Under the pieces are notes generated by a model. It had not been told where the DNA came from. It saw only the letters and a list, made by a program, of their open reading frames with translations, and did no database searches. A DNA stretch of 42,993 nucleotides from positions 1 through 42,993 of the forward strand of contig CALQYY010000002.1 in the NCBI GenBank assembly GCA_943349075.1. The letters run 5' to 3'. Position 1 is the first letter of the stretch; every line of letters begins with the position of its first letter. Shown in pieces: positions 1 to 23,005 of the stretch. The translations under genes were made by a program, and so were the position numbers. Origin of the DNA: Candidatus Magasanikiibacteriota bacterium. GTDB lineage: Bacteria; Patescibacteriota; Patescibacteriia; Magasanikbacterales; 2-02-FULL-50-9b.

Positions 1-2343
1 ACAATTGCAACAACAGATCTTAAGAACGTTAAGCTCAATGTTGCAGGTATTCAGTATGGTGCAACTCAGGATCTTGGTGCAGACAACACTCTCTCATTTG
101 ATTTCTCAGGTGCAGCAGATGGTGGTCTCAAGCTCCTTGCTGGTCAGACCAAGTTTTTGGATCTCGTTGGTGATATTGCTGGTGGTACAAACCGCACATT
201 CGCTTTCAGCATCCAGAACCAGGAAGATGTGCAAGCTTATGACAATGCATACAAGGTATTCGTACCAGTATATGCATGGTCTTCAGACGCTTTCACAATC
301 CAAACTCTTGCAAACACAACTGTAAATACAGGTAATCTTACAACATCAATTGCAGTAGGCGCTCCAAATGGTAACGTTGCACTTAACGCTTCAAGCGTAA
401 CAGTTGCTCGTTTCAACTTGTCAGCAGCTGGCGAAAATGTGAAGATTACAGGTCTTACAGTTACTTCAACAGCATCTTCATCAACGATTCCATTCAAGAA
501 TGTTAAGTTGATGCTCGACGGCACTCAGGTTGGTTCAACTGTTGCATCTCTTGCTTCAGGACTTCCAACTTCTTACACTTTCAGTAATAACTTTACAGTT
601 AAGGTTGGAACTCCAAGTGTTCTTGAAATCGTTGTTGATTTGAATGATTCTGAACTTGTACTTAATGGTGCAAATAAGACATTCTCATTCGGACTTGTAG
701 TAGGTTCATCTAATGCACAGGGCATTATCTCACTTACTTCAATGTCAACAGGTGCAGTTAATGGTAACACTTTGACTCTCAAGTCAGGTGCTCCAACCGT
801 ATCTCAGAACACAGCATTGGTTAACGCATCAACTTCTACACCAAGTGGTGTAATTAATGACACTGATGTTAAAATTGGTTCATTCGTTATCTCAGCAGGT
901 GCAGGCGAAGGTACTAAGATCACTTCACTTTCACTTCAGGACAACTCTGTTGCTTTGAATGGCCTCTTCAGCAATCTCCGCATCCGTGGTTTGAATGCTG
1001 CTGGTCAGTACGGCGACCTTGCTCCTGGTGTAGGTAACTTGAGCGGTTCAGGATCAACATACTCATTCTCATTGCCAACTGCACTTACTCTTACAAAGGG
1101 TCAGCAGTACGTAATGGACGTTGTTGCTAATGTTCTCTCAACAACTTCATCTTCAGCACTTGACATGGCTAATACAGCTGTTATCAAGGTTAAGGATGCT
1201 TCAGTTGCATACCAGACACTCGAAACAGCACAGAGCAATACAATTGCGACTGGTGCGACAGGACAGGTTGTATACCTTGTTTCAAAGGGCTCACTTGCAG
1301 CAGCAGTTTCAGCAGATACCCCAGTTGCACAGCAGCTCGTTATGGGTGCAACAAACCAGCCTATCTTGAAGTTCAAGCTTACAGCTGGTAAGTCAGAAGA
1401 TTTGTCAGTATCTGAACTTGCAGCAGCGGTTACAATCATGGCTTCAACAACTCCAACAGGTATTCTTTCGAATATCCGTTTGCTTGATGGTGACGCACAG
1501 GTTGGAAATGCAGTTGCTTCACTTACAGCATCTGACGCTTCAGCAACACCTGCAACTTCAACTGCATATGCGAAGTTCTCAGCATTGTCAATCACAGTGC
1601 CAAAGAATACTTCAAAGACATATACATTGGTTGCGGACGTAGCAGCATCTCCAGACATCTACTCAGGTCTTAATTTCACTGCATACTTGGTGAATAGCTA
1701 CGATCAGTCAGGAAGTTTGGCAATCATTGCAAAGGGTGCAAAGAGTGGTGCAGCAATTACAGCAACAGGTGTAGTTGCGGGCCATAATTCTTCAACTGTA
1801 CGTGGTAACTTGCTTACTGTGTACAAGACAAAGCTTACTGTTGCTCACGCTGCAAATGCTCCATCTGGCGCATCTTCAAAGAGTGCAACACAAGTAGTAG
1901 CTAAGTTTGTAGTTTCAAACTCAGCAAATGTGAACAACCAGGCTGCAGATATCTCGTCAATGGACTTGACCGTTGCAACTTCAATTTCACAGGTTGGAGA
2001 TGTTGTAGTAACTCTCTATAAGACGGAATCACGTACAACAGCAAACTCACTCATCACAACAACTTTGACGGGTGCAGGTGGTCAGACTGTATTACTCGGT
2101 TCGTTACGTTCTGAGACTACTGATCCAATGTTTACCATTGGAACACATACATTTACCGCGGTTTCAATTGAATCTGGTACATCTCAGACATTCACTGTAG
2201 AGATGGACACAAGCGATGCATCAGCTAACAACACCCTTACTGTGGGTCTTGCAGCTGGTGACCTTGGTTGGTCAGATGGCTACTCAGCACGTCTTACTTC
2301 AGTTGACAGCTTGCCACTTACTGGCAAGACACTTACTTACTAG
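1..2343 (+). CDS. Large modular Ser/Thr/Ala/Val/Asn-rich secreted surface protein (S-layer/adhesin-like, family not recognised); 5' end lies outside the window
   Basis: Frame 1 is open from nt 1 (TIATTDLKNVKLNVAGIQYG...) and runs into the listed 157..2343 ORF, ending at TAG 2341-2343. There is no Cys in the visible 780 aa. It contains repeated modules. Codon choice is strongly biased (ggt, gca/gct, act/aca, tca, gtt/gta), unlike the neighbouring genes. A strong terminator follows. Confidence 0.8.
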   Translation, partial: TIATTDLKNVKLNVAGIQYGATQDLGADNTLSFDFSGAADGGLKLLAGQTKFLDLVGDIAGGTNRTFAFSIQNQEDVQAYDNAYKVFVPVYAWSSDAFTIQTLANTTVNTGNLTTSIAVGAPNGNVALNASSVTVARFNLSAAGENVKITGLTVTSTASSSTIPFKNVKLMLDGTQVGSTVASLASGLPTSYTFSNNFTVKVGTPSVLEIVVDLNDSELVLNGANKTFSFGLVVGSSNAQGIISLTSMSTGAVNGNTLTLKSGAPTVSQNTALVNASTSTPSGVINDTDVKIGSFVISAGAGEGTKITSLSLQDNSVALNGLFSNLRIRGLNAAGQYGDLAPGVGNLSGSGSTYSFSLPTALTLTKGQQYVMDVVANVLSTTSSSALDMANTAVIKVKDASVAYQTLETAQSNTIATGATGQVVYLVSKGSLAAAVSADTPVAQQLVMGATNQPILKFKLTAGKSEDLSVSELAAAVTIMASTTPTGILSNIRLLDGDAQVGNAVASLTASDASATPATSTAYAKFSALSITVPKNTSKTYTLVADVAASPDIYSGLNFTAYLVNSYDQSGSLAIIAKGAKSGAAITATGVVAGHNSSTVRGNLLTVYKTKLTVAHAANAPSGASSKSATQVVAKFVVSNSANVNNQAADISSMDLTVATSISQVGDVVVTLYKTESRTTANSLITTTLTGAGGQTVLLGSLRSETTDPMFTIGTHTFTAVSIESGTSQTFTVEMDTSDASANNTLTVGLAAGDLGWSDGYSARLTSVDSLPLTGKTLTY
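19..2050 (+). repeat. At least 4 divergent tandem protein modules of ~160-180 aa inside the surface protein
   Basis: Motif B recurs as KNVKLNVAGIQYG (nt ~19), FKNVKLMLDGTQVGSTVASL (~493), FSNLRIRGLNAAGQYG (~967) and LSNIRLLDGDAQVGNAVASL (~1468). Motif A recurs as ARFNLSAAGENVKITGLTV (~398), IGSFVISAGAGEGTKITSLSL (~865), ILKFKLTAGKSEDLSVSEL (~1357) and VAKFVVSNSANVNNQAADISSMDL (~1893). The period is ~470-540 nt. The repeat is visible at protein level only. Confidence 0.6.
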
Positions 2344-2516: not shown

Positions 2517-4193
2517 ATGGGCCGTATTTCTTTGTTACTTCTGGCGTTTGTGTTTGTGCTCGTTGGCTGTATGGAAGAGGAGAAGGAATTATCCTCGAAG
2601 CAGATGGCCGGTGAGGTCCAGCCGCCGGATAGTGGCGGAGCAGATATCTCGGTGGCGGAGGTGTCGCAAGGCACCGACGCTGCGATCGAGGAGGATGCGA
2701 CCGATGCGGTCGATGCGGCGGAAGTCGCCGCTGACGTTGAGATCGCGAGTCTCGACACTGAAGAGGTGTCGGACGCGATGGACGCTGAGATGGTCGACGA
2801 AGTTGCCGCTGAGGTCGCCGATGTTTCGGATACGACCGAGGTTACTGAAACGGTCGATGATACAGAGGTTTCAGTCAGTGATGCTGACGCCGCAGTTGAC
2901 GCAACAGAAACCCAGGGTGCACAAGATGTTCCGGATGTTTCAGTCGAAGACACAGATTCTGTGATTGAGATCGCGGGAGATGTGTCTGTGGTGATTGACG
3001 CGGATGACACCTCTGACGTCGTTGCTGATACTGCTGAAGTGCTTGAAGAAGTTACGGGTGGTGACGCTGTGGTAGATGTCCAGCAGGACATTGCGCCGGA
3101 TGCGCCACCCGATGTGACGTCTCAGGACATTCCGGGGGAGACTTCGCCCGATGTTCCGCCTCCGGATCCTTGTCTCACACTCAACTGTGACGACAAGAAT
3201 CCATGCACGCTGGATTCGTGCAGCAAGACTCTTGGTTGCAGCAATGCGCCGACGGTCGTGATGTGCGAGGATGGGAATGCGTGCACTGTTGGCGATGTTT
3301 GCATCTCAGGCACGTGTACGGCTGGGGCGCCAACAAAGTGCAACGACGGCAATCCCTGCACCACTGACAGTTGCGATCCGAAGTTTGGCTGCTTTTTTGC
3401 GCCAAACTCGCTTGCGTGCGAGGATGGCGACATCTGCACCGAAGGCGAGAAGTGCTCAAGCGGCAGCTGCACGGCAGGACAGACCAAGAACTGCAGCGAC
3501 GGCAACGTATGCACGAGCGATGCGTGCGACTCGGTTAAGGGGTGTGAGAACAAACCGATGACTGGGGTATGCAGCGACGGCAATGCATGTACAGAAAGCG
3601 ACTTCTGCTCTGCGGGGTCATGTTTTTCAGGGACAGCGAAGGCGTGCGACGACGGAAATGCGTGCACCAGTAACGTGTGCGACCAGGCCAAGGGGTGTGT
3701 GAACGCTCCGAACTGGGTGTTTTATGACTTGGAGGACGCTAAACTACCGCTGAACTGGACACTTGGCGGGAATATGCAAGTCACGTGCAGTTTTGGTAAC
3801 GAATTCAAAACTAAATGTGTCTTTCTGGTTCCGCAAGGAGCTCCGGCGTACACAACCTCATTTGCGGAGCTCGATCTGGATAAGGTCCGTGCGAGCTACA
3901 AGATGGGGGAGAGTGATCTAAATATTCGGCTTTGGAGCGGCAGGTTCCAATTCGTGAACAATATGGATACCATGATGTCGTCTATCGTGGACGGTGCTGG
4001 TAAAAACATTCTCTCCAAAGTACTCGACGGAGCTACGGGAACCGCTGTTTTACAGAAGTTCATTGTCCCGAAATCGGGTTTGCTACTTCGCCTTATGCTT
4101 GTGCTGACGGAGAAGCCACTCCTGACAGGTCCGGCAGTCTGGGGCAGGGTTCTGATCGCTCCGGTTGAGTGCACGCCACCCGTGACTCCTTAA
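2517..4193 (+). CDS. Secreted lipoprotein with a polyacidic low-complexity stalk, seven cysteine-rich CxDGNxCTxDxC-type repeats and an unknown ~160-aa C-terminal domain
   Basis: The lipobox is MGRISLLLLAFVFVLVG-C. Residues ~40-218 are almost only D/E/A/V/T/S. The Cys repeats lie at 3171-3710. The gene has a strong SD, promoter and terminator. G+C is visibly higher than in its neighbours. Confidence 0.8.
   Translation: MGRISLLLLAFVFVLVGCMEEEKELSSKQMAGEVQPPDSGGADISVAEVSQGTDAAIEEDATDAVDAAEVAADVEIASLDTEEVSDAMDAEMVDEVAAEVADVSDTTEVTETVDDTEVSVSDADAAVDATETQGAQDVPDVSVEDTDSVIEIAGDVSVVIDADDTSDVVADTAEVLEEVTGGDAVVDVQQDIAPDAPPDVTSQDIPGETSPDVPPPDPCLTLNCDDKNPCTLDSCSKTLGCSNAPTVVMCEDGNACTVGDVCISGTCTAGAPTKCNDGNPCTTDSCDPKFGCFFAPNSLACEDGDICTEGEKCSSGSCTAGQTKNCSDGNVCTSDACDSVKGCENKPMTGVCSDGNACTESDFCSAGSCFSGTAKACDDGNACTSNVCDQAKGCVNAPNWVFYDLEDAKLPLNWTLGGNMQVTCSFGNEFKTKCVFLVPQGAPAYTTSFAELDLDKVRASYKMGESDLNIRLWSGRFQFVNNMDTMMSSIVDGAGKNILSKVLDGATGTAVLQKFIVPKSGLLLRLMLVLTEKPLLTGPAVWGRVLIAPVECTPPVTP
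3171..3710 (+). repeat. Seven ~24-27 aa cysteine repeats alternating between two subtypes
   Basis: Type A units: CDDKNPCTLDSCSKTLGC, CNDGNPCTTDSCDPKFGC, CSDGNVCTSDACDSVKGC, CDDGNACTSNVCDQAKGC. Type B units: CEDGNACTVGDVCISGTC, CEDGDICTEGEKCSSGSC, CSDGNACTESDFCSAGSC. From memory these resemble the Dictyostelium CTDC repeat (Pfam Dicty_CTDC). This has not been verified. Confidence 0.6.
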
Positions 4194-4278: not shown

Positions 4279-6189
4279 ATGAAATTGAACTCTCAAATAT
4301 TTTTGGCCTCTCTGTGTCTTTTGCTCGCGACCCCATTTTTGGTTGTGGAAGGGCTTCAGTTTCCTTACCAAACAACTCGAATTATTGCGTTTTCTGTTGC
4401 AATGGTTGGCTTGCTTGGGGCAACACTTTGGCGCGTACGGGAAGAGAAAAGTTTTCGCGAGCGAATTTCAGAGGTCGTTTCACATCCCATCGCAATCATA
4501 TATGGGCTCTATATTGGATGGCTTTTTGTTCGAACGCTGCCAGTTTTTTCCGCAGAAGCTTTGTGGGGAACGTGGTTTCGTTTTGATGGAATTTTGTTTG
4601 AAACGGCTTTTTTGTGCGCGATAATTGCAATTGCTGCGTGGTCTGCTGAGTTTGAATTTCGAGGAATCCAAAAGAAATCGTATGTTATTTTTGGAATGGC
4701 TGCGATATTTTCTCTTATAGTTTTTCCTGCATTGTCGCTCGATCGATATGTAGGACTTCTTCCTGAGGGGCGTTTTAATGGATCCGTTGGTAACCCTCTT
4801 TTTTTGGCTGGGTTGCTTTTGTTTTTTCCACTGTTTGCATCTCACTTTAAGAATCAAACACTAACAGCTATTATTTCTGTCGTGAGTCTTGGGTTTTTGT
4901 ATGCAACTGGAACGCGTGGAGCATTTCTTGCGGCATTTGTTGGGGTGCTCGTGCTTGTATGGGAGTCGAAAAAAATTCAGAAATCGGTGCGTGTTGGAGT
5001 GGTGAGTGTCGCACTTACGTTGGTTCTTGTTGCAGGTGTGTTGGTTTTAACAAACAAGATTTCAATTTCTCGAAGTGTAACAATTGCAACGCGTTTTGAA
5101 ATGTGGAAATCGGGCGCGCGCGAACTACTGCATCAGCCGCTCATCGGATTTGGAATGGGTGAGTATCGAAACAATATTGATCGCGGCTCGGCGAATTTGA
5201 GCGAGGTTTCATATGGCGAGATTTCGGACTCAACGCATTCGGCATATCTCGATATTGCGCTGAAGGGCGGCGTCATTGCACTTCTCATCTATGTTTTGTG
5301 GATTGGGGTAGTGTACCGTTCAATTGCAGGAGAAGACAAAGCGCTCGCGCGAGCAACGGTGGCAGCTTATTCTGCACTACTTGTAACATCTCCATGGATG
5401 GCGTGGACCGCGATACCACTTATTTTTGTGATTGCAGGTCACATTGGACGCAAAAAAAGTTTGCCGTTTATTAATTATTCGTTCATTGCTTTGAGCTGTC
5501 TTGTTATATTTTTGTCTGCGCTCACCGCTGTTTTTGCTACGCAAAGCGCTCGATATCTTGATCGTGTGGCAGATGCGATGGCTGTGCAGAAGTTTGTGGC
5601 GTTTCCGGAGGGAATGCTTGCGACGAATAAGTTCCTACCCTTTTCGAGTGATTTTGGGGTTGAGCTTTTGCGACTCACCATGCCAACAGGAACTTTCGCA
5701 GTTTCACCAAGTTTTGGAAGTTATATCAAGGGGAAAGTGTTGCCTGTATTTTCTGCGGTGGAGCTACGCACACTTCATCCTGATAGCCTCAATGTCGCTG
5801 CAACCTGGGCAAGCTCGTATGCGTCGGCAGGTCTTACAGGTGAGCATAATGTGTGGTTCGAGCGATCGCTCAGTTTGCAAAAACGGGCGCTTGCAATCAA
5901 TCCAGAGCGGCCAGCAGCGGTTTTTCAGGCAGCAGATTCGCTGAGAGAAATGGGACATATGTCAGAGGCAATATCGATGCTCAAGGACTTTGCGGATAAG
6001 CACCCAACACTTCCTGAGGCTCATTTTTATCACGCCTTGATGGTTGATATCTCAGGAGATGTGCACGGCGCGTATATGATTGAACAGCAAATCAAAAAAG
6101 ATTTCCCTAATTATGGATGGAAGGAAAGTTTAGCTGGGTGGTTCACCAGTATCGAAGCGCGCGCTCAGAAATTGCCTGCTTCAAAATAG
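4279..6189 (+). CDS. O-antigen-ligase-like (Wzy_C) polytopic membrane protein with a C-terminal TPR-like domain, paralogue 1
   Basis: It has many hydrophobic spans. Shared motifs are GTRGAFLAAFVG, GFGMGEYRN and DSTHSAYLDIALKGG. The C-terminal ~200 aa is helical-repeat (…ALAINPERPAAVFQAADSLREMGHMSEAISML…). The N-terminal P-F-L-V-V…F-P-Y segment is shared with the other three paralogues. Confidence 0.75.
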   Translation: MKLNSQIFLASLCLLLATPFLVVEGLQFPYQTTRIIAFSVAMVGLLGATLWRVREEKSFRERISEVVSHPIAIIYGLYIGWLFVRTLPVFSAEALWGTWFRFDGILFETAFLCAIIAIAAWSAEFEFRGIQKKSYVIFGMAAIFSLIVFPALSLDRYVGLLPEGRFNGSVGNPLFLAGLLLFFPLFASHFKNQTLTAIISVVSLGFLYATGTRGAFLAAFVGVLVLVWESKKIQKSVRVGVVSVALTLVLVAGVLVLTNKISISRSVTIATRFEMWKSGARELLHQPLIGFGMGEYRNNIDRGSANLSEVSYGEISDSTHSAYLDIALKGGVIALLIYVLWIGVVYRSIAGEDKALARATVAAYSALLVTSPWMAWTAIPLIFVIAGHIGRKKSLPFINYSFIALSCLVIFLSALTAVFATQSARYLDRVADAMAVQKFVAFPEGMLATNKFLPFSSDFGVELLRLTMPTGTFAVSPSFGSYIKGKVLPVFSAVELRTLHPDSLNVAATWASSYASAGLTGEHNVWFERSLSLQKRALAINPERPAAVFQAADSLREMGHMSEAISMLKDFADKHPTLPEAHFYHALMVDISGDVHGAYMIEQQIKKDFPNYGWKESLAGWFTSIEARAQKLPASK

Positions 6190-8147
6190 AGTCGGAATTT
6201 TTCTGCTTCCGATGGCATTGAGTTATCCAATAGTTGGTTGTAAATATAATTTGCAACTTGAGGTGGTTTAAATTCGTACCGTGCGGTCATGAGGAAGGAA
6301 AGTTCTTCCCAGGCGGATGCGTGTTTTTTGAGTGCAAACAACGTCAATGCTCGTTGCCAGTGTGGCGTTGTGAATTCGGGATTTAATTTGATCGCCGCAT
6401 CAAAATACGACAGTGCTTTTCCGGGGTTATTTTGCAATAGTGCAAGTTGGCCGAGTTGCAAAATAGGTTCTTGTCTTTGTGGTGAAAGCTCGGCGTATTC
6501 GGCGAATAGTTTTTCGGCGAGCTTTGCGTCATCACTATTTTTCGTCAGAGAAAGTAATTGGTAGGCGCTATTTGCGAGAGATGATTTCCATGCCCCACTA
6601 TTTGAATATTTGTTGTTGAACTCTGAAATTGTTGATCGCAACCACGAAAGATCTTCTAGGTGGAGCTGTCGTTCTTTTTGCGATAGCGCGGCATATCCAG
6701 CTGGGTTTTGCCAGTACTGCCCAACAATTCCGTGAGATAGCACTGTGAAATAATCAAGAGGAAATGGCGTTGATGTCAGATTATTTTGAAGCGCTTGTAT
6801 TGACCTGTGCTCGACTTCGTAAGTTGTATTTAATTTGATTGTTGCAAGCAGTTCTGATGAGTCTTTGACAATTGGAACGGTAGCCTGTGTGATAATAAGA
6901 AAAATGCTGAGTGTGAGAGCTGAAAATAGTGGCAGCTGAATTTTTTTAGCCTTGATTGATTTGAGATGTGAGCTTAGGAGGGAAAGTGTAAAAATGAAAA
7001 CGATCACACTTCCGTGTGTTTCAAACGAAGAAAGATTTTGTGTTGCAGCTGCTACAAGTATTCCAAGAAGAATTGAGAATTGATGTGGTGCAAATTTTGT
7101 CATCAGCACCGCATTAAACGTGGTGAGTAATAAAAAAAGATACGCGAGAAGTCCAACAAGTCCAGAGGTAACAGCAATTTCGAGAAAATAGTTATGCGGT
7201 TTGTCAGCGTGAGTTTCGGCGATTGTGTATTCGGTGAGTTTCGGTGCGAAATATTTGTCTGCTGCGAGGCTGTAATTTTCTGGACCCCAACCGAGAACTG
7301 GCTTGTCTTTAAAACCGTTTGACGCCATGCTCCAATTGTACAGACGTGTTGTGATGGTTGTTGGGGTGATGATGTTTTTGTTGAATGCGATGAATGCGAA
7401 GGCGGCTGCAAGGGCGCAGATAGAAACAAATCCAATGAGGATAGCTCGTTTATACGGTTTTGTTTTGTAGAAGTAATCGGTTAGAGCAACAAGGATTCCT
7501 GCAAATAGTCCGAGAAGTGGGCCGCGTGTTTGTGTGAAAAAAAGTGAGATTCCAGCGAGAATAACTGAAGCTCCTGAAACAAACCACCAAGAGGAATATT
7601 TTTTTTCTTCAAAAAGTTTTATCGCGATGATGCCGATGCTGAGCGTTAGGTAGGATCCGTAGAAAATTGCATTACCGAGGGTGCCACCGATTCGAGCGCC
7701 TGAAAATGTTTGTGAAAATCCAGGAAGAAGTTTTTGAAGAATTCCCCAGAGTGCTGCAGTTGCAACGGTTAAAGCAAAAAAACGAAATAAAAAAGTTTTA
7801 TTCTCTTCTCTTGTTAAAGCCTGTTTCAATCCAAAATATGCAACAAGAAGTGTTGGCCAGAGAGAAAATGCAAAGCTTCGTTCGAGTGAACCCCATATAC
7901 TGTGTGTGCGGTCGACGCTGAAAATTGTGCTGAGCCCGAGCGCGAGGACAAAAAGAACGAATGCGATGTCTAGTCGAGTGAGGGGGCTTATGGTTTTTTT
8001 AACAACATCTCGAACAAGCAGAGCTGACCAGAAAGCACAGAGAATCGTAATAAAAATCCATCGGGGTAGTGTATAAGGAAATGGGAGGTTTGTGAGAACT
8101 ACGAGGGGGGATACAAGAAAAAGCGCCGCAAAAATTCGATGGAGCAT
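6165..8147 (-). CDS. O-antigen-ligase-like (Wzy_C) membrane protein with a C-terminal TPR domain, paralogue 2
   Basis: Motifs are QTRGPLLGLFAG, GWGPENYSLAADKYF and DKPHNYFLEIAVTSGLVG. The TPR-like tail reads …AELSPQRQEPILQLGQLALLQNNPGKALSYFDAAIKLNPEF…. It converges on paralogue 1 and overlaps it by 25 nt. Confidence 0.78.
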   Translation of the reverse strand: MLHRIFAALFLVSPLVVLTNLPFPYTLPRWIFITILCAFWSALLVRDVVKKTISPLTRLDIAFVLFVLALGLSTIFSVDRTHSIWGSLERSFAFSLWPTLLVAYFGLKQALTREENKTFLFRFFALTVATAALWGILQKLLPGFSQTFSGARIGGTLGNAIFYGSYLTLSIGIIAIKLFEEKKYSSWWFVSGASVILAGISLFFTQTRGPLLGLFAGILVALTDYFYKTKPYKRAILIGFVSICALAAAFAFIAFNKNIITPTTITTRLYNWSMASNGFKDKPVLGWGPENYSLAADKYFAPKLTEYTIAETHADKPHNYFLEIAVTSGLVGLLAYLFLLLTTFNAVLMTKFAPHQFSILLGILVAAATQNLSSFETHGSVIVFIFTLSLLSSHLKSIKAKKIQLPLFSALTLSIFLIITQATVPIVKDSSELLATIKLNTTYEVEHRSIQALQNNLTSTPFPLDYFTVLSHGIVGQYWQNPAGYAALSQKERQLHLEDLSWLRSTISEFNNKYSNSGAWKSSLANSAYQLLSLTKNSDDAKLAEKLFAEYAELSPQRQEPILQLGQLALLQNNPGKALSYFDAAIKLNPEFTTPHWQRALTLFALKKHASAWEELSFLMTARYEFKPPQVANYIYNQLLDNSMPSEAEKFRLYFEAGNF

Positions 8148-8157
8148 ATTGGTTAAA

Positions 8158-8187
8158 AGTATACGGTGTCGCGGTGCGTGGGGTCAA
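8158..8187 (-). promoter_or_regulatory. Minus-strand promoter for paralogue 2
   Basis: On the minus strand: TTGACC (8187-8182), an 18-nt spacer, then TATACT (8163-8158). The ATG (8147-8145) is 10 nt downstream, so the leader would be very short with no SD. Confidence 0.5.
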
Positions 8188-8194
8188 TATTGAG

Positions 8195-8223
8195 TTGATT
8201 TTTTTGTCTTAATAAGGTAGACT
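8195..8223 (+). promoter_or_regulatory. Plus-strand promoter for paralogues 3-4 and the downstream GT operon
   Basis: TTGATT (8195-8200), a 17-nt spacer, then TAGACT (8218-8223). The implied TSS near 8230 lies downstream of the GTG at 8226, which favours ATG 8241 as the start. Confidence 0.5.
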
Positions 8224-8240
8224 CAGTGCCAGAAATATCT

Positions 8241-10370
8241 ATGCAATTAGCGAAAAAAATATCGCAGATTTCGATGATTTTGGTCTTGCTTACGCCGCTT
8301 GTTGTATATTCTGGCGTACAATTTTCATTTTCGATTCCACGGTGGGTTTGGCTGCTTGGGACCGTTTCTGTTTTTTTTGTGGCGTCGCTTGCTGCGGGAC
8401 ACGGATCTGATAAATGGAAAATCACAAAAATCGATCTCGTATATAGCGCGCTCATATTACTTATGTGCGCATCGCTTTTTGTAACAACAGACATTCGCCA
8501 AACGCTCTGGAGTAGTGCAGCGCGGACAACCGGTCTCGTATTGTATGTTCTTGGTTTTTTGTGGTTTGTTGGTGCGCGCATGCAAAATTTTTCGGCAGAG
8601 GCATGGAGAAGATATTTTTTGATCGTAGTTGGTGTTGCAGGGTTTGCATCGATGTGGGGAATTTTTGATATGTTCGTGCTGAAAGATGCGGGAATGGTGG
8701 CGGGTCAAGGACGCCTCAGCATTCCTGCGGGTAATGCGCTCATTTTTGCAACATATCTTGCGCCGATTCTTTTTATTGCAGCGTTTTTGTTTGCCGAGCG
8801 CGCGAAAGCAAATTTTGCGAAGTGGCAATATATTTTGGTTGGTGTTGGCTCTGTGTTTATCGCAGTTGCGGTAGGTCTTACATATTCTCGCTCATCTTAT
8901 ATAGGTGTGGTGGCTGGGGTACTTATTGGACTGATCGGCTACGGCACCACTATACTTCGGTCTAATAATCGCGTTGCATCGCGTCGTTTAGTGGCGGCAG
9001 CGTTAATTATTTTTTTGGGTACAGGATCTTTTTATACATACGCCGTGCAGGCAAATTTGGGCGGAGGTCGTTTGAAGATCACGTCAGATTCTTTTTTAAC
9101 GCTCCGAACCCGATTTATTAATTGGAAGATCGCGTTTCGATCGATTCAGGAACATCCAGTTGTTGGAGTTGGTTGGGAAAATTATCGATCAGCAGTCGAT
9201 CGTTTATTTGATCCATCGCTTTCAACATATTCATATTATGAAACGCGCATCGATAAACCTCACAATGTGATTCTTGAGGTTTGGGCAACATTGGGGACTG
9301 TTGGTCTTCTCGTTTATTTGGCGTTGATTTATGCGACGATTTTGGCTGCGTGGAGACTTTTCATGCAAAAAAAGATAACGCTGCTTGGTTTTTGGTCGCT
9401 TATCGGGTTTGTTGTTGCATATCATGTTCAAAATCTGTTTGCGTTTGATTCACCACAAACAATTTTTACACAAACTCTTGTTTTGGTATTTTTATCTTCG
9501 CAGGATGACTCGGTTCGTGAGGCATCAGTTAGATTTTTTCCAAAAATACGCACAGGACTTGTAATTATTTGTGCGCTGCTTCTGGGCAGCTTGTTTGTGT
9601 ATGGAGGCTTTGCGCCGCTGCGCACGATGTGGTACATAAATAGAGGGCTTGTCGCAGCTCAGGCGCGTGATTTTGATGTCGTTCACTCTTCAATGAAAAA
9701 AGCTTTTGCTGGTGTGCAAGGGCCATACTATTTTGAGACATGGCGATGGTTTGCGGAGTCATTGCTCAAAAATTACGCAAGTGGACAGCAAAAATTATCT
9801 GATTTGTCACCAGAACAGCGCGTGCGATGGGAGGAAGATGTTTTGCAGATTGCGCACCTTACAGAAAAATATGGGAATGAAAATCCTGATTCGTTTGAGT
9901 GGCAAACATTTGCTGGAAAAGTTTCGTATTTTCTTGCGATTGCAAAAAATGATGTAGAGTATCTTGCGCAGGCGAAAAAATATTTTTTGCGTGCATTTGA
10001 GATTTCAAAGGTTCGCCAAGAGCCGCCAATTCTTTTGAGCTATGTTTACGCGCTCGAGGGGAATAATGCTGCAGCTACTGAGTGGTATACGACAGCGGTT
10101 AAACTCTCGGCAACAATAGAGACGGCGAGCGCTTTGGATTGGCTCGTAAACCGGTTTGCGAATGAAAAGGATGTAGCAAACGCAATTTTAGTACTTGAAA
10201 ACACCGTCGAGAGTGCGCCAAACGCAACTGATTATGCACGTCTTGCTGCGGCATATGCAGATGCGTCGCGTTTTGATGATGCGACAAAGGCAGTGCATAA
10301 AGCAGTTGAATTAGATTCAACGTTTGCCGAAGAAGCGGAAAAATTTATTTCAGGATTTACGAAAAAATAA
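8241..10370 (+). CDS. O-antigen-ligase-like (Wzy_C) membrane protein with a C-terminal TPR domain, paralogue 3
   Basis: Motifs are YSRSSYIGVVAG, GVGWENYRSAVDRLF and DKPHNVILEVWATLGTVG. The TPR-like tail reads …FEISKVRQEPPILLSYVYALEGNNAAATEWYTTAVKL…. The ORF track begins at GTG 8226; ATG 8241 is preferred because of the promoter position. Confidence 0.78.
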   Translation: MQLAKKISQISMILVLLTPLVVYSGVQFSFSIPRWVWLLGTVSVFFVASLAAGHGSDKWKITKIDLVYSALILLMCASLFVTTDIRQTLWSSAARTTGLVLYVLGFLWFVGARMQNFSAEAWRRYFLIVVGVAGFASMWGIFDMFVLKDAGMVAGQGRLSIPAGNALIFATYLAPILFIAAFLFAERAKANFAKWQYILVGVGSVFIAVAVGLTYSRSSYIGVVAGVLIGLIGYGTTILRSNNRVASRRLVAAALIIFLGTGSFYTYAVQANLGGGRLKITSDSFLTLRTRFINWKIAFRSIQEHPVVGVGWENYRSAVDRLFDPSLSTYSYYETRIDKPHNVILEVWATLGTVGLLVYLALIYATILAAWRLFMQKKITLLGFWSLIGFVVAYHVQNLFAFDSPQTIFTQTLVLVFLSSQDDSVREASVRFFPKIRTGLVIICALLLGSLFVYGGFAPLRTMWYINRGLVAAQARDFDVVHSSMKKAFAGVQGPYYFETWRWFAESLLKNYASGQQKLSDLSPEQRVRWEEDVLQIAHLTEKYGNENPDSFEWQTFAGKVSYFLAIAKNDVEYLAQAKKYFLRAFEISKVRQEPPILLSYVYALEGNNAAATEWYTTAVKLSATIETASALDWLVNRFANEKDVANAILVLENTVESAPNATDYARLAAAYADASRFDDATKAVHKAVELDSTFAEEAEKFISGFTKK

Positions 10371-10373
10371 CGT

Positions 10374-12593
10374 ATGGCAACGATTGTACCAAAAAAAGAA
10401 TTTCGAGAATCTGTCGCGCAGGTTTTGTTATATGCGGCGCTCATAACTCCGCTCATTGTTGGATCATCGTTTTCAATTTTCCCATTTATTTTTCCGAAAG
10501 TAATGTACTTTGAAATTGTTGCGGGTCTTCTTGCGGCAGTTTTGACTCCAATTATTTTGAAAAAGAAGTTGTACAGTGTGACGAATATATATGCATACGC
10601 AATGGGTACCTATGCGGTTGTTTTAGGGATTTCGGGTATCACTGCGTTTGATTCGAGTCGCGCATTTTGGAGTAATTTTGAGCGAATGACCGGAATCGTT
10701 TTTATTTGGTTTGCTATATTGTTTTCAGTTTTAGTAACTGCATATTTCAGCGCAAATATTAATAAACTTCGTGGATTTCTCTCGTATCTTGTCGGAATTT
10801 CCGTAGTTGTTGCGTTTTCAGGCATTATTCAGCGGTTTGATTCTACATTTTTGATGCATCAAGGAACGCGCGTTGCGGGAACTTTTGGTAACCCAATTTA
10901 TCTCGGTGGGTTTTGTGCTCAGCTTGCGCTTATTGCGGGATATTTGGCCTACATAAATCGAGATAAAGCTGTGAAGTGGTGGTATCTTTTTGCAGTACTT
11001 GCTAATTCGATTGCAATTTATTTGAGCGGAACACGCAGTGCTCTTGTTGGTTTGTTTGGTGCGCTTGTGATCATTGGAATGTATGGCGGCAGTAGGTTAT
11101 GGATGCACGGGAAAAAACAGCTTGTGGTTTCACTTCTTATTGGTATCGGTGCTGTTGTTGGAATATTATTTGCACTTCCACACTATATTCCATCGCTCCA
11201 AGGAACGATGCTTGAACGCATGACTAATGTTTCTAGTGCGCTGAGCACAACAGGCTCAACACGTCTTATCGCGTGGAAAATCGCGATTAAAGGATTTTTG
11301 GAGAGACCTGTATTTGGTTGGGGACCTGAGAATTTCTTTTTTGTTTTCAATAAATACTACGACCCAAAGTCGTTGTTGCATGGAAGCTATGAAACTTGGT
11401 TTGATCATGCACACAACGCTGTTTTTGATGTACTGGTAACACAAGGTTTTGTTGGATTTGCGGTCTATCTTTTTCAGTACGGACTTATTCTGTGGATGTG
11501 TTATAAAACAAGAAGTGCTGATGAAAATGAAAATATTTTGTCGGTAGTTTTGGCTGGTATTTTTGTACTGCATTTCATTCACAATTTTTTTGTGTTCGAT
11601 CATCCAGGCTCGTATGTTGAGTTTTATGCGCTCGGTGCGATTGTTGCTGCGCGATATGTTGTGATGAAACGGACGCAGGTATTAAATACCAATGAACCGC
11701 AGATAAGAAATGTTGGCGAAGCCGCGGGGCATATGGTGAGTGTTGCTGCGATTTTGCTCACAGTATATGTTGTTGTGCCATCGTTTCGCCAAAACTATTT
11801 AGATTTAAAGGCGCAAGTTGCGGCTGGGACGGATTTGAATGTGACGCAGAAATATTTTAAGGAGGCCCTCGCGGTGAATGGACCTCACATGACGGATGTT
11901 TTAATGGATGTTGGTCGAATTGGTCAAAGAATTCCGCTCGTTGTTAATGGAGGACAATCGTTTTTAAGCATTCCGATGTTCAAAAATTATTACGATTTTA
12001 CTTTTCAATCACTCGATCAAGTGATTAGTAAATATGAGCCGGGTAATGTTTTGGCGGCAATTATGAAGGGGCAACTCCTCATGAATGTTGCGCAGACGGG
12101 GAATGTTGCAGCAATTGAGGAGGGAAGCGCGGCATTTAAATATGCGACGTCGCTCAGTCCTGATCGTCAACAGATTGCATACTCATGGGCACACCTTTTG
12201 CTCATGAAAAACGATGTAGCGGGTGCAAAAAAATTGCTTGAAGGAGTGAACGCAAAAGAACCAGGAATTGGTATTGGGCATTGGTATCTTGCTCTCATTT
12301 ATATCGATACTGAGCCAGAGAAAGCAGCAGACGAGGTTGATCTCGCCTTAAAAAATGGGCATAATATTACAGCGCCAGAAAATCGATTACTTGCGGGGTT
12401 AGCATACAAGCGTGCGGGCCGCACACAAAAAGCTGTCGAGTTGTTTACACTCGGAATAAATGATGCGGCAACGCGAAATTGGAATGCCGAGCTTGTGCTT
12501 GCGGCAGACAGTACATTCGCTGAGATGAAACTTGTAGAAGAACAAAAAAAGTTACGCGCTTTGTTTCCCGAAGTTTTTAAAATAAAAAAATAG
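10374..12593 (+). CDS. O-antigen-ligase-like (Wzy_C) membrane protein with a C-terminal TPR domain, paralogue 4
   Basis: Motifs are GTRSALVGLFGA, GWGPENFFFVFNKYY and DHAHNAVFDVLVTQGFVG. The TPR-like tail reads …SLSPDRQQIAYSWAHLLLMKNDVAGAKKLLEG…. It starts 3 nt after the stop of paralogue 3. Confidence 0.78.
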   Translation: MATIVPKKEFRESVAQVLLYAALITPLIVGSSFSIFPFIFPKVMYFEIVAGLLAAVLTPIILKKKLYSVTNIYAYAMGTYAVVLGISGITAFDSSRAFWSNFERMTGIVFIWFAILFSVLVTAYFSANINKLRGFLSYLVGISVVVAFSGIIQRFDSTFLMHQGTRVAGTFGNPIYLGGFCAQLALIAGYLAYINRDKAVKWWYLFAVLANSIAIYLSGTRSALVGLFGALVIIGMYGGSRLWMHGKKQLVVSLLIGIGAVVGILFALPHYIPSLQGTMLERMTNVSSALSTTGSTRLIAWKIAIKGFLERPVFGWGPENFFFVFNKYYDPKSLLHGSYETWFDHAHNAVFDVLVTQGFVGFAVYLFQYGLILWMCYKTRSADENENILSVVLAGIFVLHFIHNFFVFDHPGSYVEFYALGAIVAARYVVMKRTQVLNTNEPQIRNVGEAAGHMVSVAAILLTVYVVVPSFRQNYLDLKAQVAAGTDLNVTQKYFKEALAVNGPHMTDVLMDVGRIGQRIPLVVNGGQSFLSIPMFKNYYDFTFQSLDQVISKYEPGNVLAAIMKGQLLMNVAQTGNVAAIEEGSAAFKYATSLSPDRQQIAYSWAHLLLMKNDVAGAKKLLEGVNAKEPGIGIGHWYLALIYIDTEPEKAADEVDLALKNGHNITAPENRLLAGLAYKRAGRTQKAVELFTLGINDAATRNWNAELVLAADSTFAEMKLVEEQKKLRALFPEVFKIKK

Positions 12594-12597: not shown

Positions 12598-13737
12598 ATG
12601 AAAAATCTTACTGATACGCGGCCGCATATAGTTATTGCAACAACTGCGTTTGCACCGTTTATTGGTGGTGCTGAAGTGGCAGTTCAGGAAATTATTAAAA
12701 GAACGAGCGATTCGTTTCGATATACTGTTGTGACAGCTCGGATGGATGCTGCATTGTCGGCGCGTGAAACATGGAATGATGTCGATGTCGTGAGAGTTGG
12801 ATGGGGAACGCCACTTGATAAGCTATGGCTCATTGTAATTTTTCCCTGGTACGCGCGAAAGCTGCAGCCGAAACTTGTGTGGGCTGTGATGGCAAGCTAC
12901 GCGGGAGCTGCGGCGTGTTTCAATAAAATTATCAGCGGAAGCTCATACGTGCTCACGCTACAAGAAGGGGATGATTTGAATCGTATCGAACATCGTCTTC
13001 GTTTTGTGATGCTACTCTTCAAGCAGATTTTTACGCGAGCAGAAAGCGTACAAACGATTGCTCATTTTTTGGCGGTGTGGGCAAAAAAAATGGGGGCAAC
13101 GTCGGAGCTAGTCGTTGTTCCGAATGGTGTTTCCTGTGATGCGTTTTTTTTGGAGAATGAGAAAAAACTGGAATACCGGACGGAAGTTCGTGAAGAAAAT
13201 AAAATTCCAGACAGTGCTTTTGTTATTTTATCGGTTTCACGTTTAGTTGAAAAGAATGGTATCAGTGATTTAATTGAAGCGCTTAAAGTGTTGCCCGAAA
13301 TGCACCTACTTTTGGTTGGCGATGGGAATTTGCGGCAAGCGCTTGAAGCGCAGGCAGTATCAATTCAAAACCGCGTTCATTTTTTGGGAACTCAACAGCA
13401 GAGTGAGTTGAAACAGATTGCAGCTGCAGCGGATGTTTTTTGTCGGCCAGCACATTCAGAGGGGCAAGGAATCGCATTTCTTGAAGCTCTTTGTATGGGT
13501 CTTCCGGTTGTTGCGACCAATGTAGGAGGAATCCCTGAGATTATCGAGCACGATGTTCATGGGCTTCTTGTGGAGCCATATCGTATTGAGCAGCTGGCCC
13601 AGGCGCTTGCTACGGTTCAGGGTGATCAGGCTCGCCGCACTCAGATGGTCACCGTAGGCTCAAATCATGTTAAGCAATTTTCGTGGGATTTGCTGGTGCC
13701 ACAAATTAAAAATTGGCTTAGCTCAAATATAAAATAA
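12598..13737 (+). CDS. Glycosyltransferase family 4 (GT-B, Glycos_transf_1)
   Basis: The C-terminal EX7E-type signature is HSEGQGIAFLEALCMGLPVVATNVGGIPEIIEHDVHGLLVEP. It starts 4 nt after the previous stop. Confidence 0.85.
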   Translation: MKNLTDTRPHIVIATTAFAPFIGGAEVAVQEIIKRTSDSFRYTVVTARMDAALSARETWNDVDVVRVGWGTPLDKLWLIVIFPWYARKLQPKLVWAVMASYAGAAACFNKIISGSSYVLTLQEGDDLNRIEHRLRFVMLLFKQIFTRAESVQTIAHFLAVWAKKMGATSELVVVPNGVSCDAFFLENEKKLEYRTEVREENKIPDSAFVILSVSRLVEKNGISDLIEALKVLPEMHLLLVGDGNLRQALEAQAVSIQNRVHFLGTQQQSELKQIAAAADVFCRPAHSEGQGIAFLEALCMGLPVVATNVGGIPEIIEHDVHGLLVEPYRIEQLAQALATVQGDQARRTQMVTVGSNHVKQFSWDLLVPQIKNWLSSNIK

Positions 13738-13799
13738 AAAAGTTGTCTTGACATCTCCGATTGGCTTTTGTTATTGTTAGCAACATATTGTACAAATTT

Positions 13800-14597
13800 A
13801 TGGCAAAAAAATTCGTAATTGGTATCATGGGAGTCGGCATGGTTGGGGGAGCAACAAAGCGCTATTTTGAAACAACAGGACATGAGGTGGTGTCGTACGA
13901 CCCATTTAAAGGTTTTGATGACGCGTCGGTTTTGGAGAGAGCGGATTATATTTTTATCTGTGTTCCAACACCATACCTCGTTGATAACGGGGGTTTTGAT
14001 TTGAGTTTTGTAAAAACTGCAATGGATTTGATTCCAGAAAATAAGGTTGTAGTAATTAAATCAACAGTGCTTCCTGGAACAACTGTTGCGCTTCAGGCTG
14101 AATATCCAAAACTCAAAGTTTTGTTTAATCCAGAATTTTTGACTGAAGAAAGTGCTGATCAGGACATGCGATTTCCTGATCGCCAACTTGTTGGCTATAC
14201 AAAAGAAAGTTACACAGCATCAGCAGATCTCATCATGCTTTTACCGGCAGCACCGTTTGAGCGCGTTTTGCCTGCAACTGAAGCTGAAATGGTGAAGTAT
14301 TTTGGAAACACATGGTTTGCGGTGAAAGTTGTGTTTGCAAACCAGATGTATGATGTGTGTGACAAGCTTGGACTTGATTATGACATGGTTCGCGACGCAG
14401 CAGCAGCTGACAAGCGTATTGGCCGCTCACATCTCGAAATTTTCCACAAAGGTGCTCGTGGATATGGAGGAAAATGCTTGCCAAAAGATACACGCGCGAT
14501 GATTCAGCTTGGTGAGCGTCTTGGTTTATCTCTTGATCTTCTTAAGACAACTGACGCAATCAACAATAAACTTGTTGAAGGCAGCAATAAAAAGTAG
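13800..14597 (+). CDS. UDP-glucose/GDP-mannose dehydrogenase-family protein lacking the C-terminal UDP-sugar-binding domain (265 aa)
   Basis: The Rossmann motif is IGIMGVGMVGGA. Other family motifs are NPEFLTEESADQDMRFPDRQLVG and the catalytic-Cys motif GGKCLPKD. The ORF ends ~30 aa after that Cys. ATG 13800 (MAKKFVIG…) is preferred over the listed 13761 start. Confidence 0.7.
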   Translation: MAKKFVIGIMGVGMVGGATKRYFETTGHEVVSYDPFKGFDDASVLERADYIFICVPTPYLVDNGGFDLSFVKTAMDLIPENKVVVIKSTVLPGTTVALQAEYPKLKVLFNPEFLTEESADQDMRFPDRQLVGYTKESYTASADLIMLLPAAPFERVLPATEAEMVKYFGNTWFAVKVVFANQMYDVCDKLGLDYDMVRDAAAADKRIGRSHLEIFHKGARGYGGKCLPKDTRAMIQLGERLGLSLDLLKTTDAINNKLVEGSNKK

Positions 14598-14598
14598 T

Positions 14599-15972
14599 CT
14601 ATCGACCCTTCCCGTATAAAATTACGTGAAGCGTCTTCAATATAATCGTGATATCGAGCATGAGCGACCTGTTCTTAATATAGAACAGGTCGTATTGAAA
14701 TTTGGTGAGTTGCTGCTCGGTTGTTTCAGCGTATGGGTAGTTGATCTGCGCCCAACCTGTGAGACCTGGTTTAACTAAATTTCGAACGGTGTAGTAGGGC
14801 ATGTGCTTTTCGAACTGCTCAACAAATTGTGGGCGTTCAGGACGTGGGCCAATGATCGACATTTCGCCTTTTAAGACGTTGATGACTTGGGGGAGTTCGT
14901 CGATACGAAGTGAGCGAATAATTTTTCCAATTTTCGTGATGCGAGGATCGTCCTGTGTTGTGAATTGCGCGCCTGAAAGTTCTGCGCCACCGTCTTTTTC
15001 AAGAGCGTGCATGGTGCGAAATTTGATAACTTTAAAGCGGCGACCACTTTTGCCGATGCGCTCTTGCAAATAGAAGAGAGGTCCTGGTGATTGGATCTTT
15101 GTCGCAAGTGCAACAAAAGGGGTTAGCAGTAGAAGTGCTAAGAGACCAAGTGTTGCAAAAACGTAGTCCGCGGCGCGCTGAAAAACCTCGTAAACAGTTG
15201 CGTGGTTTGGTTGCAGGTTTTCGAAAAACCACGAATCTTGGAGTGATGCAAATGAAATTCTGCCGGAGAGCGACTCGAAAAATGCATCTGCTGGCATTGT
15301 ATAGACGTCCCAAAAGAGGAGTTCGTAGAGCTCGCCGTAAAGCTTTGCTGCGCTCGCCTCAGTGTTGAATGGCATAACAATCAGGCCAACGTGGTGTTCG
15401 GAAACAATCGCGCGAATCGGAGTTTTTGTTGAGAATGTTTGGAGACCGTGCTGCTCCTGTTTTTCGTCATCGGAAATAATGCCGATTATTTGATAACCAA
15501 GCTGTGGGTTTTTTTGGAGCGTTGTCAGGAGTGTAATAAGCTCGCTGTTTGGGTTGATAGCGAGTACACGAACACTCGCTCGAACGCTTGAGCTGATAAT
15601 GAAGCGCCAGAGTACAAACATTGCTGCAAAAACAATGCTGAGAATGAACAGGTTGGTTCTCGGTGTAATGTTAAAAATCGGAACAAGATAGAAGAGGGTG
15701 ACTGCGGCACCGACAGCAATAAGCCAGCTTTCGGTGAAGCGACGAAGAAACGCGAGTGAGACTTTTATGTTGAGGAGGTCGTAGAGCCCGTTTACGTAGA
15801 AAATGATGAGCCAAAAAACGAAAATGAGACCCATTGGGAAAAGATGGAGGTTCAGTTGGTGCGCAAAATCTGCCACTCCATAGCGAGCAAGGAGTGTAAT
15901 GGCGAGAGATATGTATAAAACCACGAGATCACCCGTAAGTAAGACGATTTGTCTTGCTTTGACAGCGCGCAT
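14599..15972 (-). CDS. Initiating polyprenyl-phosphate sugar-phosphate transferase (WbaP/EpsB-type 'bacterial sugar transferase')
   Basis: It has N-terminal TM helices. The conserved C-terminal core reads PLFYLQERIGKSGRRFKVIKFRTM…DDPRITKIGKIIRSLRIDELPQ…GEMSIIGPRPERP…KPGLTGWAQI. Confidence 0.88.
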   Translation of the reverse strand: MRAVKARQIVLLTGDLVVLYISLAITLLARYGVADFAHQLNLHLFPMGLIFVFWLIIFYVNGLYDLLNIKVSLAFLRRFTESWLIAVGAAVTLFYLVPIFNITPRTNLFILSIVFAAMFVLWRFIISSSVRASVRVLAINPNSELITLLTTLQKNPQLGYQIIGIISDDEKQEQHGLQTFSTKTPIRAIVSEHHVGLIVMPFNTEASAAKLYGELYELLFWDVYTMPADAFFESLSGRISFASLQDSWFFENLQPNHATVYEVFQRAADYVFATLGLLALLLLTPFVALATKIQSPGPLFYLQERIGKSGRRFKVIKFRTMHALEKDGGAELSGAQFTTQDDPRITKIGKIIRSLRIDELPQVINVLKGEMSIIGPRPERPQFVEQFEKHMPYYTVRNLVKPGLTGWAQINYPYAETTEQQLTKFQYDLFYIKNRSLMLDITIILKTLHVILYGKGR

Positions 15973-20420: not shown

Positions 20421-20424
20421 TTTT

Positions 20425-20778: not shown

Positions 20779-20781
20779 CAT

Positions 20782-21879: not shown

Positions 21880-21917
21880 TACGCCAGATTAAAAAACTAA
21901 TCAGCAATTTTATACGT

Positions 21918-22661: not shown

Positions 22662-22706
22662 AATTCTCGAGTTATCCAGTTATCCCCGTGCATAATGTGC
22701 GGATAC

Positions 22707-22737
22707 AAAACCCTTGCTAAATGCAGGGGTTTTTGTT
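22707..22737 (+). terminator. Rho-independent terminator ending the glycan operon
   Basis: AAAA-CCCTTGC-TAAAT-GCAGGGG-TTTTTGTT forms a 7-bp stem (one G:U pair) followed by a T-tract. Confidence 0.7.
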
Positions 22738-22815
22738 ACGGTACAGGTGCTCCAAAACACTTTGATATACGCCGATAATCACAATTTTGTGTATGGTGTG
22801 AGATACGAAGGAGGG

Positions 22816-22999: not shown

Positions 23000-23005
23000 C
23001 GTGGT

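Follow-up and report, generated by a model that had tools for sequence, protein, structure and literature searches.

The first 42,993 nucleotides of contig CALQYY010000002.1 (assembly GCA_943349075.1) from a Candidatus Magasanikiibacteriota bacterium of the Patescibacteriota, referred to here as the window, carry an array of four adjacent genes (W1 to W4) that encode members of the Wzy_C superfamily. Each product combines a WaaL-type core of 12 membrane helices, bearing an Arg/Arg/His set of conserved residues, with one extra helix and a C-terminal tetratricopeptide repeat (TPR) domain. W4 represents a widespread clade of such enzymes whose genes are repeatedly found downstream of a gene for a giant secreted protein built of immunoglobulin (Ig)-like repeats, and this protein is, on balance, the most likely acceptor of the glycan that W4 would transfer.

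The Wzy_C array

The earlier note on this DNA, made by a model from the letters alone, had described four adjacent genes for proteins of 636-739 amino acids (aa), and the corresponding open reading frames (ORFs) were found where it had placed them (Table 1), with the minus strand of W2 to be added to that account. W1 and W2 are convergent, their 3' ends overlapping by 25 nt, whereas W2 and W3 are divergent. The start of W3 is probably the ATG at 8241, which would give a protein of 709 aa, the same length as its orthologue in L001 (the relatives' loci compared here are numbered L001 to L083). All of the motif strings quoted in the note are present in W1-W4.

The four proteins score 66.9 (W1), 78.2 (W2), 67.4 (W3) and 77.4 bits (W4) against the Pfam family Wzy_C (PF04932), with E-values of 1e-18 to 1e-22. 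The curated gathering cut-off of this family is 31.7 bits, and since all four scores far exceed it, membership is not a matter of chance; the domain assignment of the note, which it had proposed to check in this way, is borne out. All of the defining features tested, namely the domain, the Arg/Arg/His residues and the WaaL-like fold of W4, are present, and W1-W4 are members of the Wzy_C superfamily. Pairwise identity among the four is 21-27% over the membrane part and 14-23% over the tail. None of them matches PglL_A in Pfam, and Wzy_C_2 is matched by W1 only, at 14.7 bits against a cut-off of 28.5, with no match in W2-W4; assignment to the PglL/PglS class was rejected on these missing or sub-threshold markers. 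The repeat-unit polymerase model TIGR04370 is matched by W4 only, at 30.9 bits, below its cut-off of 40.

Active site and fold

As a single sequence, W4 retrieved nothing useful from the sequences of the PDB, and a profile of the full-length family was dominated by TPR matches. WaaL was recovered only with a profile of the membrane part, which matched one solved structure, that of WaaL from Cupriavidus metallidurans (7TPG/7TPJ; E 3e-16). The profile alignment places R221, R297 and H347 of W4 on R191, R265 and H313 of 7TPG, which we take to be the diphosphate-binding and catalytic residues of WaaL, and W301, P312, G315 and G317 on W269, P280, G283 and G285. The expectation of the earlier note that the conserved Arg and His residues would fall on the catalytic positions of WaaL is supported by this alignment. 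The invariant positions of a 69-member family alignment, in W4 numbering, are R104, N173, R221, R297, W301, P312, G315, G317, D344, H347 and G358. Residues R104, R166, N173, R221, R297, D344 and H347 are also kept in the W1, W2 and W3 clades across six genomes, with the exception that R221 reads as Thr in two of the six W2 rows, probably through a shift in the alignment; the catalytic residues are retained in all six orthologues of W1.

An AlphaFold model was made for W4 (pLDDT 93.4, pTM 0.91) and displays 13 membrane helices, rather than the 10-12 hydrophobic spans counted in the earlier note, followed by some 14 helices of the tail. The best PDB match of this model in Foldseek, the comparison that the note had suggested, is WaaL (7tpg_B; E 5.9e-6; target-normalised TM-score 0.67 over the 403-residue target). 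The next fold matches in the PDB are to the W4 tail, namely consensus TPR (CTPR), OGT-TPR, Tom70 and MamA.

TPR tails and membrane topology

The tails are 210-270 aa long across the four proteins and, taken as single sequences, score below threshold against the Pfam TPR models (13-22 bits). The family profile matches consensus TPR and OGT TPR structures at E-values of 1e-45 to 1e-223, and profiles of the orthologous tails from six genomes match the OGT TPR (W1, E 2.6e-22) or the consensus TPR (W2, E 8e-43; W3, E 2.6e-48). All four tails are TPR domains, and the profiles, with E-values of 2.6e-22 to 1e-223, confirm what the note had recognized by eye. The P-x-R-Q element that it had singled out as shared is present, but as the ordinary inter-repeat turn of consensus TPRs, with whose 'LDPRSAEA' it aligns, and in W3 of the window the Pro is replaced by Lys (SKVRQE).

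The thirteenth helix of W4 (residues 449-483) follows directly on the WaaL-equivalent core. Both termini of WaaL are cytoplasmic, and because helices 1-12 of W4 match those of WaaL and helix 13 crosses the membrane again, the TPR tail is predicted to lie outside. Lys and Arg abound in the short loops with a predicted cytoplasmic position, those preceding the last helix of the four proteins reading RKK, KAKK, R..R..KIR and KR..R, and the invariant residues all occur in loops predicted to be outside. Judged from WaaL homology and loop charge, the TPR tail would lie with the catalytic loop on the outer face of the cytoplasmic membrane, in agreement with the placement that the note had anticipated.

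Linkage of W4 to a giant surface protein

The window opens within the gene of a giant secreted protein, a full-length orthologue of which (P0122) contains 1233 aa and bears a signal peptide ending in TAHA, followed by AP. P0122 is rich in Ala, Thr, Ser, Val and Gly and contains almost no Cys. The AlphaFold model of the giant protein is all-beta (pLDDT 87.6), and its best PDB fold matches are Ig-like surface proteins, among them PrgB, antigen I/II, a Haloferax S-layer protein and pilins. Close homologues carry no Pfam domain, more distant ones bear an N-terminal peptidoglycan-binding module (PG_binding_1), and the N-terminal domain of the giant protein itself has no significant match in Pfam or the PDB. 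The family (window 1-2343; L003, L007 and L009-L072) comprises secreted proteins of about 1,100-1,500 aa with Ig-like repeats that are annotated only as 'hypothetical', and stands as a candidate for a surface-layer or coat protein. Many members end in [LM]P[LIV]xG[KRN][TS][LV][TSV][YF]-COOH, with a C-terminal Tyr in 51 of 117 full-length members. A sortase signal at the C-terminus of the giant protein (LPLTGKTLTY) was considered and rejected, as its Thr lacks conservation and a hydrophobic tail is missing after it.

The association of this family with Wzy_C-TPR enzymes extends far beyond the window. A distant genome with a single Wzy_C-TPR gene, 30% identical to W4, has a giant-protein homologue directly upstream (28% identity over 647 aa; E 1e-34). 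Of 84 sources (the 83 loci and the window), 40 encode a homologue of 1,200-1,500 aa upstream of the enzyme and on its strand. Where at least 4 kb of upstream flank is available (63 loci), such a homologue is found in 33, mostly at gaps below 500 bp and in many Patescibacteria lineages. The 30 loci that lack it fall in another clade of the enzyme tree. A five-round jackhmmer search detected no giant-protein homologue near these 30 non-linked genes, and because they stayed negative after this extended search, the linkage is specific to the one enzyme clade that contains W4. The co-occurrence with the 1-2343 protein family that the earlier note had proposed to examine holds for the W4 clade. The linked enzyme gene usually precedes genes of family 4 glycosyltransferases (GT4), homologues of which accompany the enzyme at 32 of 36 other giant-protein-linked loci, compared with 10 of 41 non-linked loci.

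The neighbours of the non-linked clade (L028-L083), identified by reading their sequences, form a different assemblage. The gene secA is immediately downstream in 15 of 30 loci, and an ABC exporter (10 loci), GDP-mannose dehydratase (9), murB (8), an ABC-2 permease (6) and a NeuB-like sugar synthase (5) also occur.

Distribution and history of the paralogues

Relatives are found in at least 590 genomes in a scan of one genome per species, and nearly all of the record titles name Patescibacteria groups. The membrane part of W4 alone retrieves 987 clusters (50% identity) at E<=1e-30, and among the best 150 nearly all have lengths of 650-800 aa and therefore carry the tail. The closest named relatives are from Candidatus Magasanikbacteria, and distant full-length relatives of 25-30% identity, with clear TPR matches in Pfam, occur in many Patescibacteria lineages. 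Several relatives are already annotated as 'O-antigen ligase/TPR repeat protein'. The fusion of Wzy_C and TPR is neither rare nor unprecedented, as these counts, the existing annotation and the precedent of WsfB discussed below show. Some cassette-bearing records are titled 'uncultured Gammaproteobacteria', 'Planctomycetota' or 'Legionellaceae' (L010, L011, L013, L017, L018, L047, L078 and others), and these titles may reflect placeholder or mis-binned taxonomy or a real occurrence outside the Patescibacteria.

The fourfold array itself is far more restricted. Its gene order and orientation (+,-,+,+) recur in five related loci of Magasanikbacteria, with W4 orthologues that share 76% to 40% identity with W4, and in a sixth (L002) a contig edge falls inside a W3-like gene, so that only W3 and W4 are visible. 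Other Patescibacteria loci have one copy within 10 kb in 70 cases, two in 7 and three in 1. A neighbour-joining tree places W4 among the giant-protein-linked single-copy genes of other Patescibacteria, whereas the W1, W2 and W3 sequences fall into three long-branched clades, each of six Magasanikbacteria genomes only, W3 being sister to W2. A search with W2 likewise returned orthologues, from Magasanikbacteria only, at 326 bits or more and all else at 137 bits or less. The amplification reported in the earlier note is a lineage-specific expansion in one Magasanikbacteria clade, and W1-W3 are old Magasanikbacteria-specific duplicates that have kept their catalytic residues while their tails diverged strongly. 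Tandems of two or three Wzy_C-TPR genes arose independently in other Patescibacteria lineages (L009, L019, L020, L025, L039, L061 and L069), so duplication seems to be a general tendency and not a peculiarity of the source genome.

Identity to the orthologues of L001, the 76%-identity relative, is 60-69% for W1-W3 and 76% for W4. Relative to the same locus, the ratio of nonsynonymous to synonymous substitution rates (dN/dS) is 0.21 for W1, 0.15 for W2 and 0.13 for W3, within a range of 0.12-0.21 for the four, values that are rough given the saturation of dS (1.5-2.0) and that indicate purifying selection on all four genes.

The glycan-assembly island and other genes of the window

The array is continued downstream by a series of genes for glycan assembly (Table 1), the order of which is the same in L001 and L002. 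Among them is a WbaP-like initiating phosphoglycosyl transferase, of a family that makes the polyprenyl-diphosphate-linked donor. The short dehydrogenase-like gene that precedes it is of similar form in L001 and L002, where it measures 265 aa, and is therefore not a local truncation. At 19761-20778, a family 2 glycosyltransferase (GT2; 219 aa) overlaps a small DUF2304 membrane protein, a pair that we take to resemble the GacI/GacJ-type pairs making polyprenyl-monophosphate sugars. If it is indeed GacI/GacJ-like, the island would also need an outside transferase for the polyprenyl-monophosphate donor, for which the window offers no evident candidate. The subtilase of the island might process the surface protein.

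Between the giant-protein gene and the array lies the gene of a Cys-rich putative lipoprotein that includes a long acidic low-complexity stretch. Its homologues occur only in the close relatives L001, L005 and L006 and not in L007. In its housekeeping part, the window has three ORFs (24868-25458, 28265-28903 and 41744-42484; 196-246 aa) with no Pfam match. Rfam and tRNA scans of the window gave no matches, and between 2300 and 13000 neither promoter-like sites (15, compared with 15.2 in shuffled sequence) nor terminator-like sites (18 compared with 13.5) are enriched.

Table 1. Features of the array, of its upstream genes and of the adjoining island, in coordinates of the window
Feature	Position	Strand	Length	Remarks
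Giant secreted surface protein	1-2343	+	C-terminal 780 aa	Frame open from base 1, cut at window edge; candidate acceptor or partner
Cys-rich putative lipoprotein	2517-4193	+	558 aa	Dicty_CTDC repeats, 86.5 bits; N-terminus ends in lipobox-like LVGC
W1	4279-6189	+	636 aa	Most divergent Wzy_C-TPR paralogue; Wzy_C nt 4873-5295; TPR tail nt 5551-6186
W2	6165-8147	-	660 aa	Wzy_C-TPR paralogue; Wzy_C nt 7137-7568; TPR tail nt 6168-6863
W3	8226-10370	+	714 aa	Wzy_C-TPR paralogue; Wzy_C nt 8850-9320; TPR tail nt 9621-10367
W4	10374-12593	+	739 aa	Widespread giant-protein-linked clade; Wzy_C nt 10992-11471; TPR tail nt 11793-12590
W4 Arg221 codon (GTRSAL)	11034-11036	+		Aligns with R191 of 7TPG; kept in 107/109 family ORFs
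W4 Arg297 codon (STRLIAW)	11262-11264	+		Aligns with R265 of 7TPG; kept in 109/109 family ORFs
W4 His347 codon (DHAHN)	11412-11414	+		Aligns with H313 of 7TPG; kept in 109/109 family ORFs
GT4 glycosyltransferase	12598-13737	+		Immediately 3' of array; Glycos_transf_1, 130.9 bits
Short UDP-glucose/GDP-mannose dehydrogenase-like gene	13761-14597		278 aa	N-terminal and central domains; no Pfam match for C-terminal domain
WbaP-like initiating phosphoglycosyl transferase	14599-15972	-		Bac_transf, 209.4 bits, and CoA_binding_3; kept in L001 and L002
Membrane-anchored TPR protein	16031-16729	+	232 aa	TPR_2, 29 bits; N-terminal hydrophobic anchor; kept in L001 and L002
Subtilase S8	16747-18744	+	665 aa	Peptidase_S8, 164 bits; kept in L001 and L002
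Rest of island	18748-24133	+		Epimerase/dehydratase, GT2 and DUF2304, GT4, DsbA-like (21918-22661), GT4; from Pfam

Comparison with known systems

By profile and by fold, the best match in the PDB is WaaL, with which the Arg/Arg/His positions and a large outer loop are shared and which uses a polyprenyl-diphosphate-linked donor. WaaL has 12 helices and no C-terminal domain, whereas W1-W4 add the thirteenth helix and the TPR tail, and its acceptor, lipid A-core, is not expected in Patescibacteria, which are not known to make lipopolysaccharide. With their extra helix and tail, and with no lipid A-core expected, W1-W4 are not classical WaaL enzymes.

The same architecture, as far as WsfB has been described, is that of WsfB from Paenibacillus alvei, a predicted S-layer O-oligosaccharyltransferase with Wzy_C and a C-terminal TPR (PMC2943079, a 2010 review). 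For WsaB of Geobacillus stearothermophilus, a small separate TPR protein, WsaA, is encoded adjacent to the enzyme (PMC2943079), and the window too includes a separate small TPR protein. The systems are further alike in that glycosyltransferases and a WbaP-like initiating transferase share a glycan island with the enzyme, in belonging to a single-membrane organism and in a large surface-layer protein as target (PMC2943079), a candidate one in the window. They differ in that one enzyme is found there and four here, and in that the S-layer gene is transcribed independently of the glycan cluster, whereas in the window the candidate acceptor is encoded immediately upstream.

The Wzy_C core is also common to PglL, PglS, TfpO/PilO and TfpM. 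PglS likewise has 13 membrane helices, its C-terminal domain is periplasmic, and alignment with 7TPG/7TPJ assigns its arginines to the pyrophosphate and its His as base (PMC12800693, a paper of 2025). For TfpO, TfpM and PglS, the substrate gene is often a neighbour of the enzyme gene (PMC12645811). Unlike PglL and PglS, W1-W4 have a TPR as C-terminal domain, and the marker domains of those enzymes are absent or sub-threshold; the known substrates of PglL, PglS, TfpO and TfpM are pilins or periplasmic proteins of Gram-negative bacteria. The Wzy polymerases of O-antigen and capsule share the Pfam superfamily and the weak TIGR04370 match of W4, but that match is below the cut-off and no Wzx or Wzz was found in the window. 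Classical Wzy polymerases are not known to carry a TPR tail. Finally, TfpW of Pseudomonas aeruginosa and the eukaryotic TMTC proteins are likewise polytopic membrane transferases with a non-cytoplasmic C-terminal TPR, a location that reporter fusions support for TfpW, which modifies the pilin encoded next door. These enzymes have an ArnT-like GT-C fold with a DDX motif and use polyprenyl-monophosphate sugars, and are thus analogous and not homologous to W1-W4.

Proposed function and alternatives

The giant surface protein encoded upstream is put forward, with slightly better than even confidence, as the most likely acceptor of W4, which would act as a dedicated O-oligosaccharyltransferase and transfer an undecaprenyl-diphosphate-linked glycan onto it. 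The WbaP-like phosphoglycosyl transferase and the GT4s of the island would assemble an oligosaccharide on polyprenyl diphosphate on the inner side of the membrane, and a flippase encoded outside the window would flip it. The conserved arginines of the Wzy_C core would then bind the diphosphate, and the conserved His would serve as the base while the glycan is moved en bloc to a hydroxyl of the acceptor held by the TPR domain. W4 would work in the manner of WsfB/WsaB in S-layer glycosylation, or of TfpO, TfpM and PglS with their adjacent substrates. W1-W3 probably serve other sites, acceptors or glycans, and a polymerase role may belong to one of them.

Several considerations weigh against this reading. 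Protein O-glycosylation and the ligation or polymerisation of a wall glycan are not separable by computation, and Wzy_C alone cannot tell ligases, polymerases and O-oligosaccharyltransferases apart (PMC12645811). PglL_A and Wzy_C_2, the marks of PglL/PglS enzymes, are absent or sub-threshold in W1-W4. The adjacency of the giant-protein gene is also expected if the glycan anchors the giant protein to the wall, and the linkage covers the clade of W4 only, with nothing in the loci compared that would tie W1-W3 to a particular acceptor. The earlier note had treated the TPR tail as a sign of a protein acceptor, but TPR domains also scaffold polysaccharide export, according to a reference cited in PMC2943079, and the tail alone therefore does not indicate one. 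The predicted topology leans on WaaL homology and loop charge, and the selection estimates on a saturated dS. Pfam scans of the 43-kb window, moreover, found no Wzx or other flippase, no Wzz or other chain-length regulator, no LCP-type ligase and no exporter that would show the type of pathway.

The main rival explanation, distinctly less probable, is that W1-W4 act on a wall glycopolymer. One or more of them would be Wzy-type polymerases or ligases, linking polyprenyl-diphosphate-linked repeat units with one another, with a lipid anchor or with peptidoglycan. The growing chain would be guided by the outside TPR tail, consistent with the export scaffolds mentioned above, and the giant protein would bind the glycan, anchored as S-layers are to secondary wall polymers or O-antigen; S-layer anchoring through O-antigen has a precedent (PMC6978808). 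The superfamily and the conserved residues would be the same as for a protein-directed transferase, polymerase and ligase roles could be divided among the four paralogues, and the TIGR04370 match of W4, weak as it is, points in the same direction. The N-terminal wall-binding module of the giant protein also differs from lineage to lineage, being PG_binding_1 in some and an unassigned domain in Magasanikbacteria, as would fit different wall anchors. Yet the island is without Wzx, Wzz, an LCP-type ligase or an exporter, and the closest solved structure, by both profile and fold, is a ligase and not a polymerase, although few polymerase structures exist. The extra helix and C-terminal extracytoplasmic domain are a feature of the characterised O-oligosaccharyltransferase PglS (PMC12800693), and a tight pairing with one protein over deep divergence is typical of dedicated O-oligosaccharyltransferases and their substrates (PMC12645811).

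The divergence of the paralogues bears on a further explanation, that W4 alone is active and W1-W3 are degenerating or non-catalytic duplicates, for example regulatory or structural subunits of a hetero-oligomer. W1-W3 do evolve faster than W4, as their lower identities to the L001 orthologues indicate, score lower against the family profile and form long branches in the tree. This explanation is nevertheless improbable, given that the catalytic positions are kept in all three clades across six genomes, that the dN/dS of W1-W3 is 0.13-0.21 and that the array and its gene order are kept down to 40% identity of W4. Less credible still, to the point of being almost dismissed, is the idea that W1-W4 are transporters resembling IctB, of the 'putative bicarbonate transporter' family, and not glycan transferases at all. 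It draws on a weak match of W2 to TIGR00947 (29.6 bits) and on one distant homologue named 'putative inorganic carbon transporter' at its source, whereas the cut-off of that model is 366 bits, the genes sit within a glycan-assembly island and the WaaL catalytic triad is kept; the IctB identity was rejected on the score.

Biological significance

The array is best described as a family expansion of a common and already annotated architecture and is not a new kind of system. A search of the literature found no paper linking Patescibacteria to O-antigen-ligase-like enzymes, or concerned with the Wzy_C-TPR fusion in these bacteria. What is new is the recurrent cassette, in which GT4s accompany a giant secreted protein of Ig-like repeats and a WaaL-fold enzyme whose TPR tail is predicted to lie outside; no earlier description of it was found. 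A bolder view, rather unlikely, is that the giant protein is the long-sought S-layer or coat protein of many Patescibacteria and the W4-clade enzyme its dedicated O-oligosaccharyltransferase, so that the pair and the GT4s would form a phylum-wide coat-glycosylation cassette, with the Magasanikbacteria possessing four specialised transferases whose diverged tails would read different repeats or acceptors. On this view the four transferases would clothe these episymbionts in a combinatorial glycan coat, of use in attaching to hosts or escaping phages.

Much of bacterial diversity falls within the Patescibacteria, organisms that grow attached to other cells and for the most part remain uncultured. 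Next to nothing is known of the proteins and glycans in their envelopes. The cassette, together with the residues named here, makes their surface make-up and glycosylation testable by heterologous expression. If these enzymes are indeed protein O-oligosaccharyltransferases, they would widen the enzyme set available for glycoconjugate engineering.

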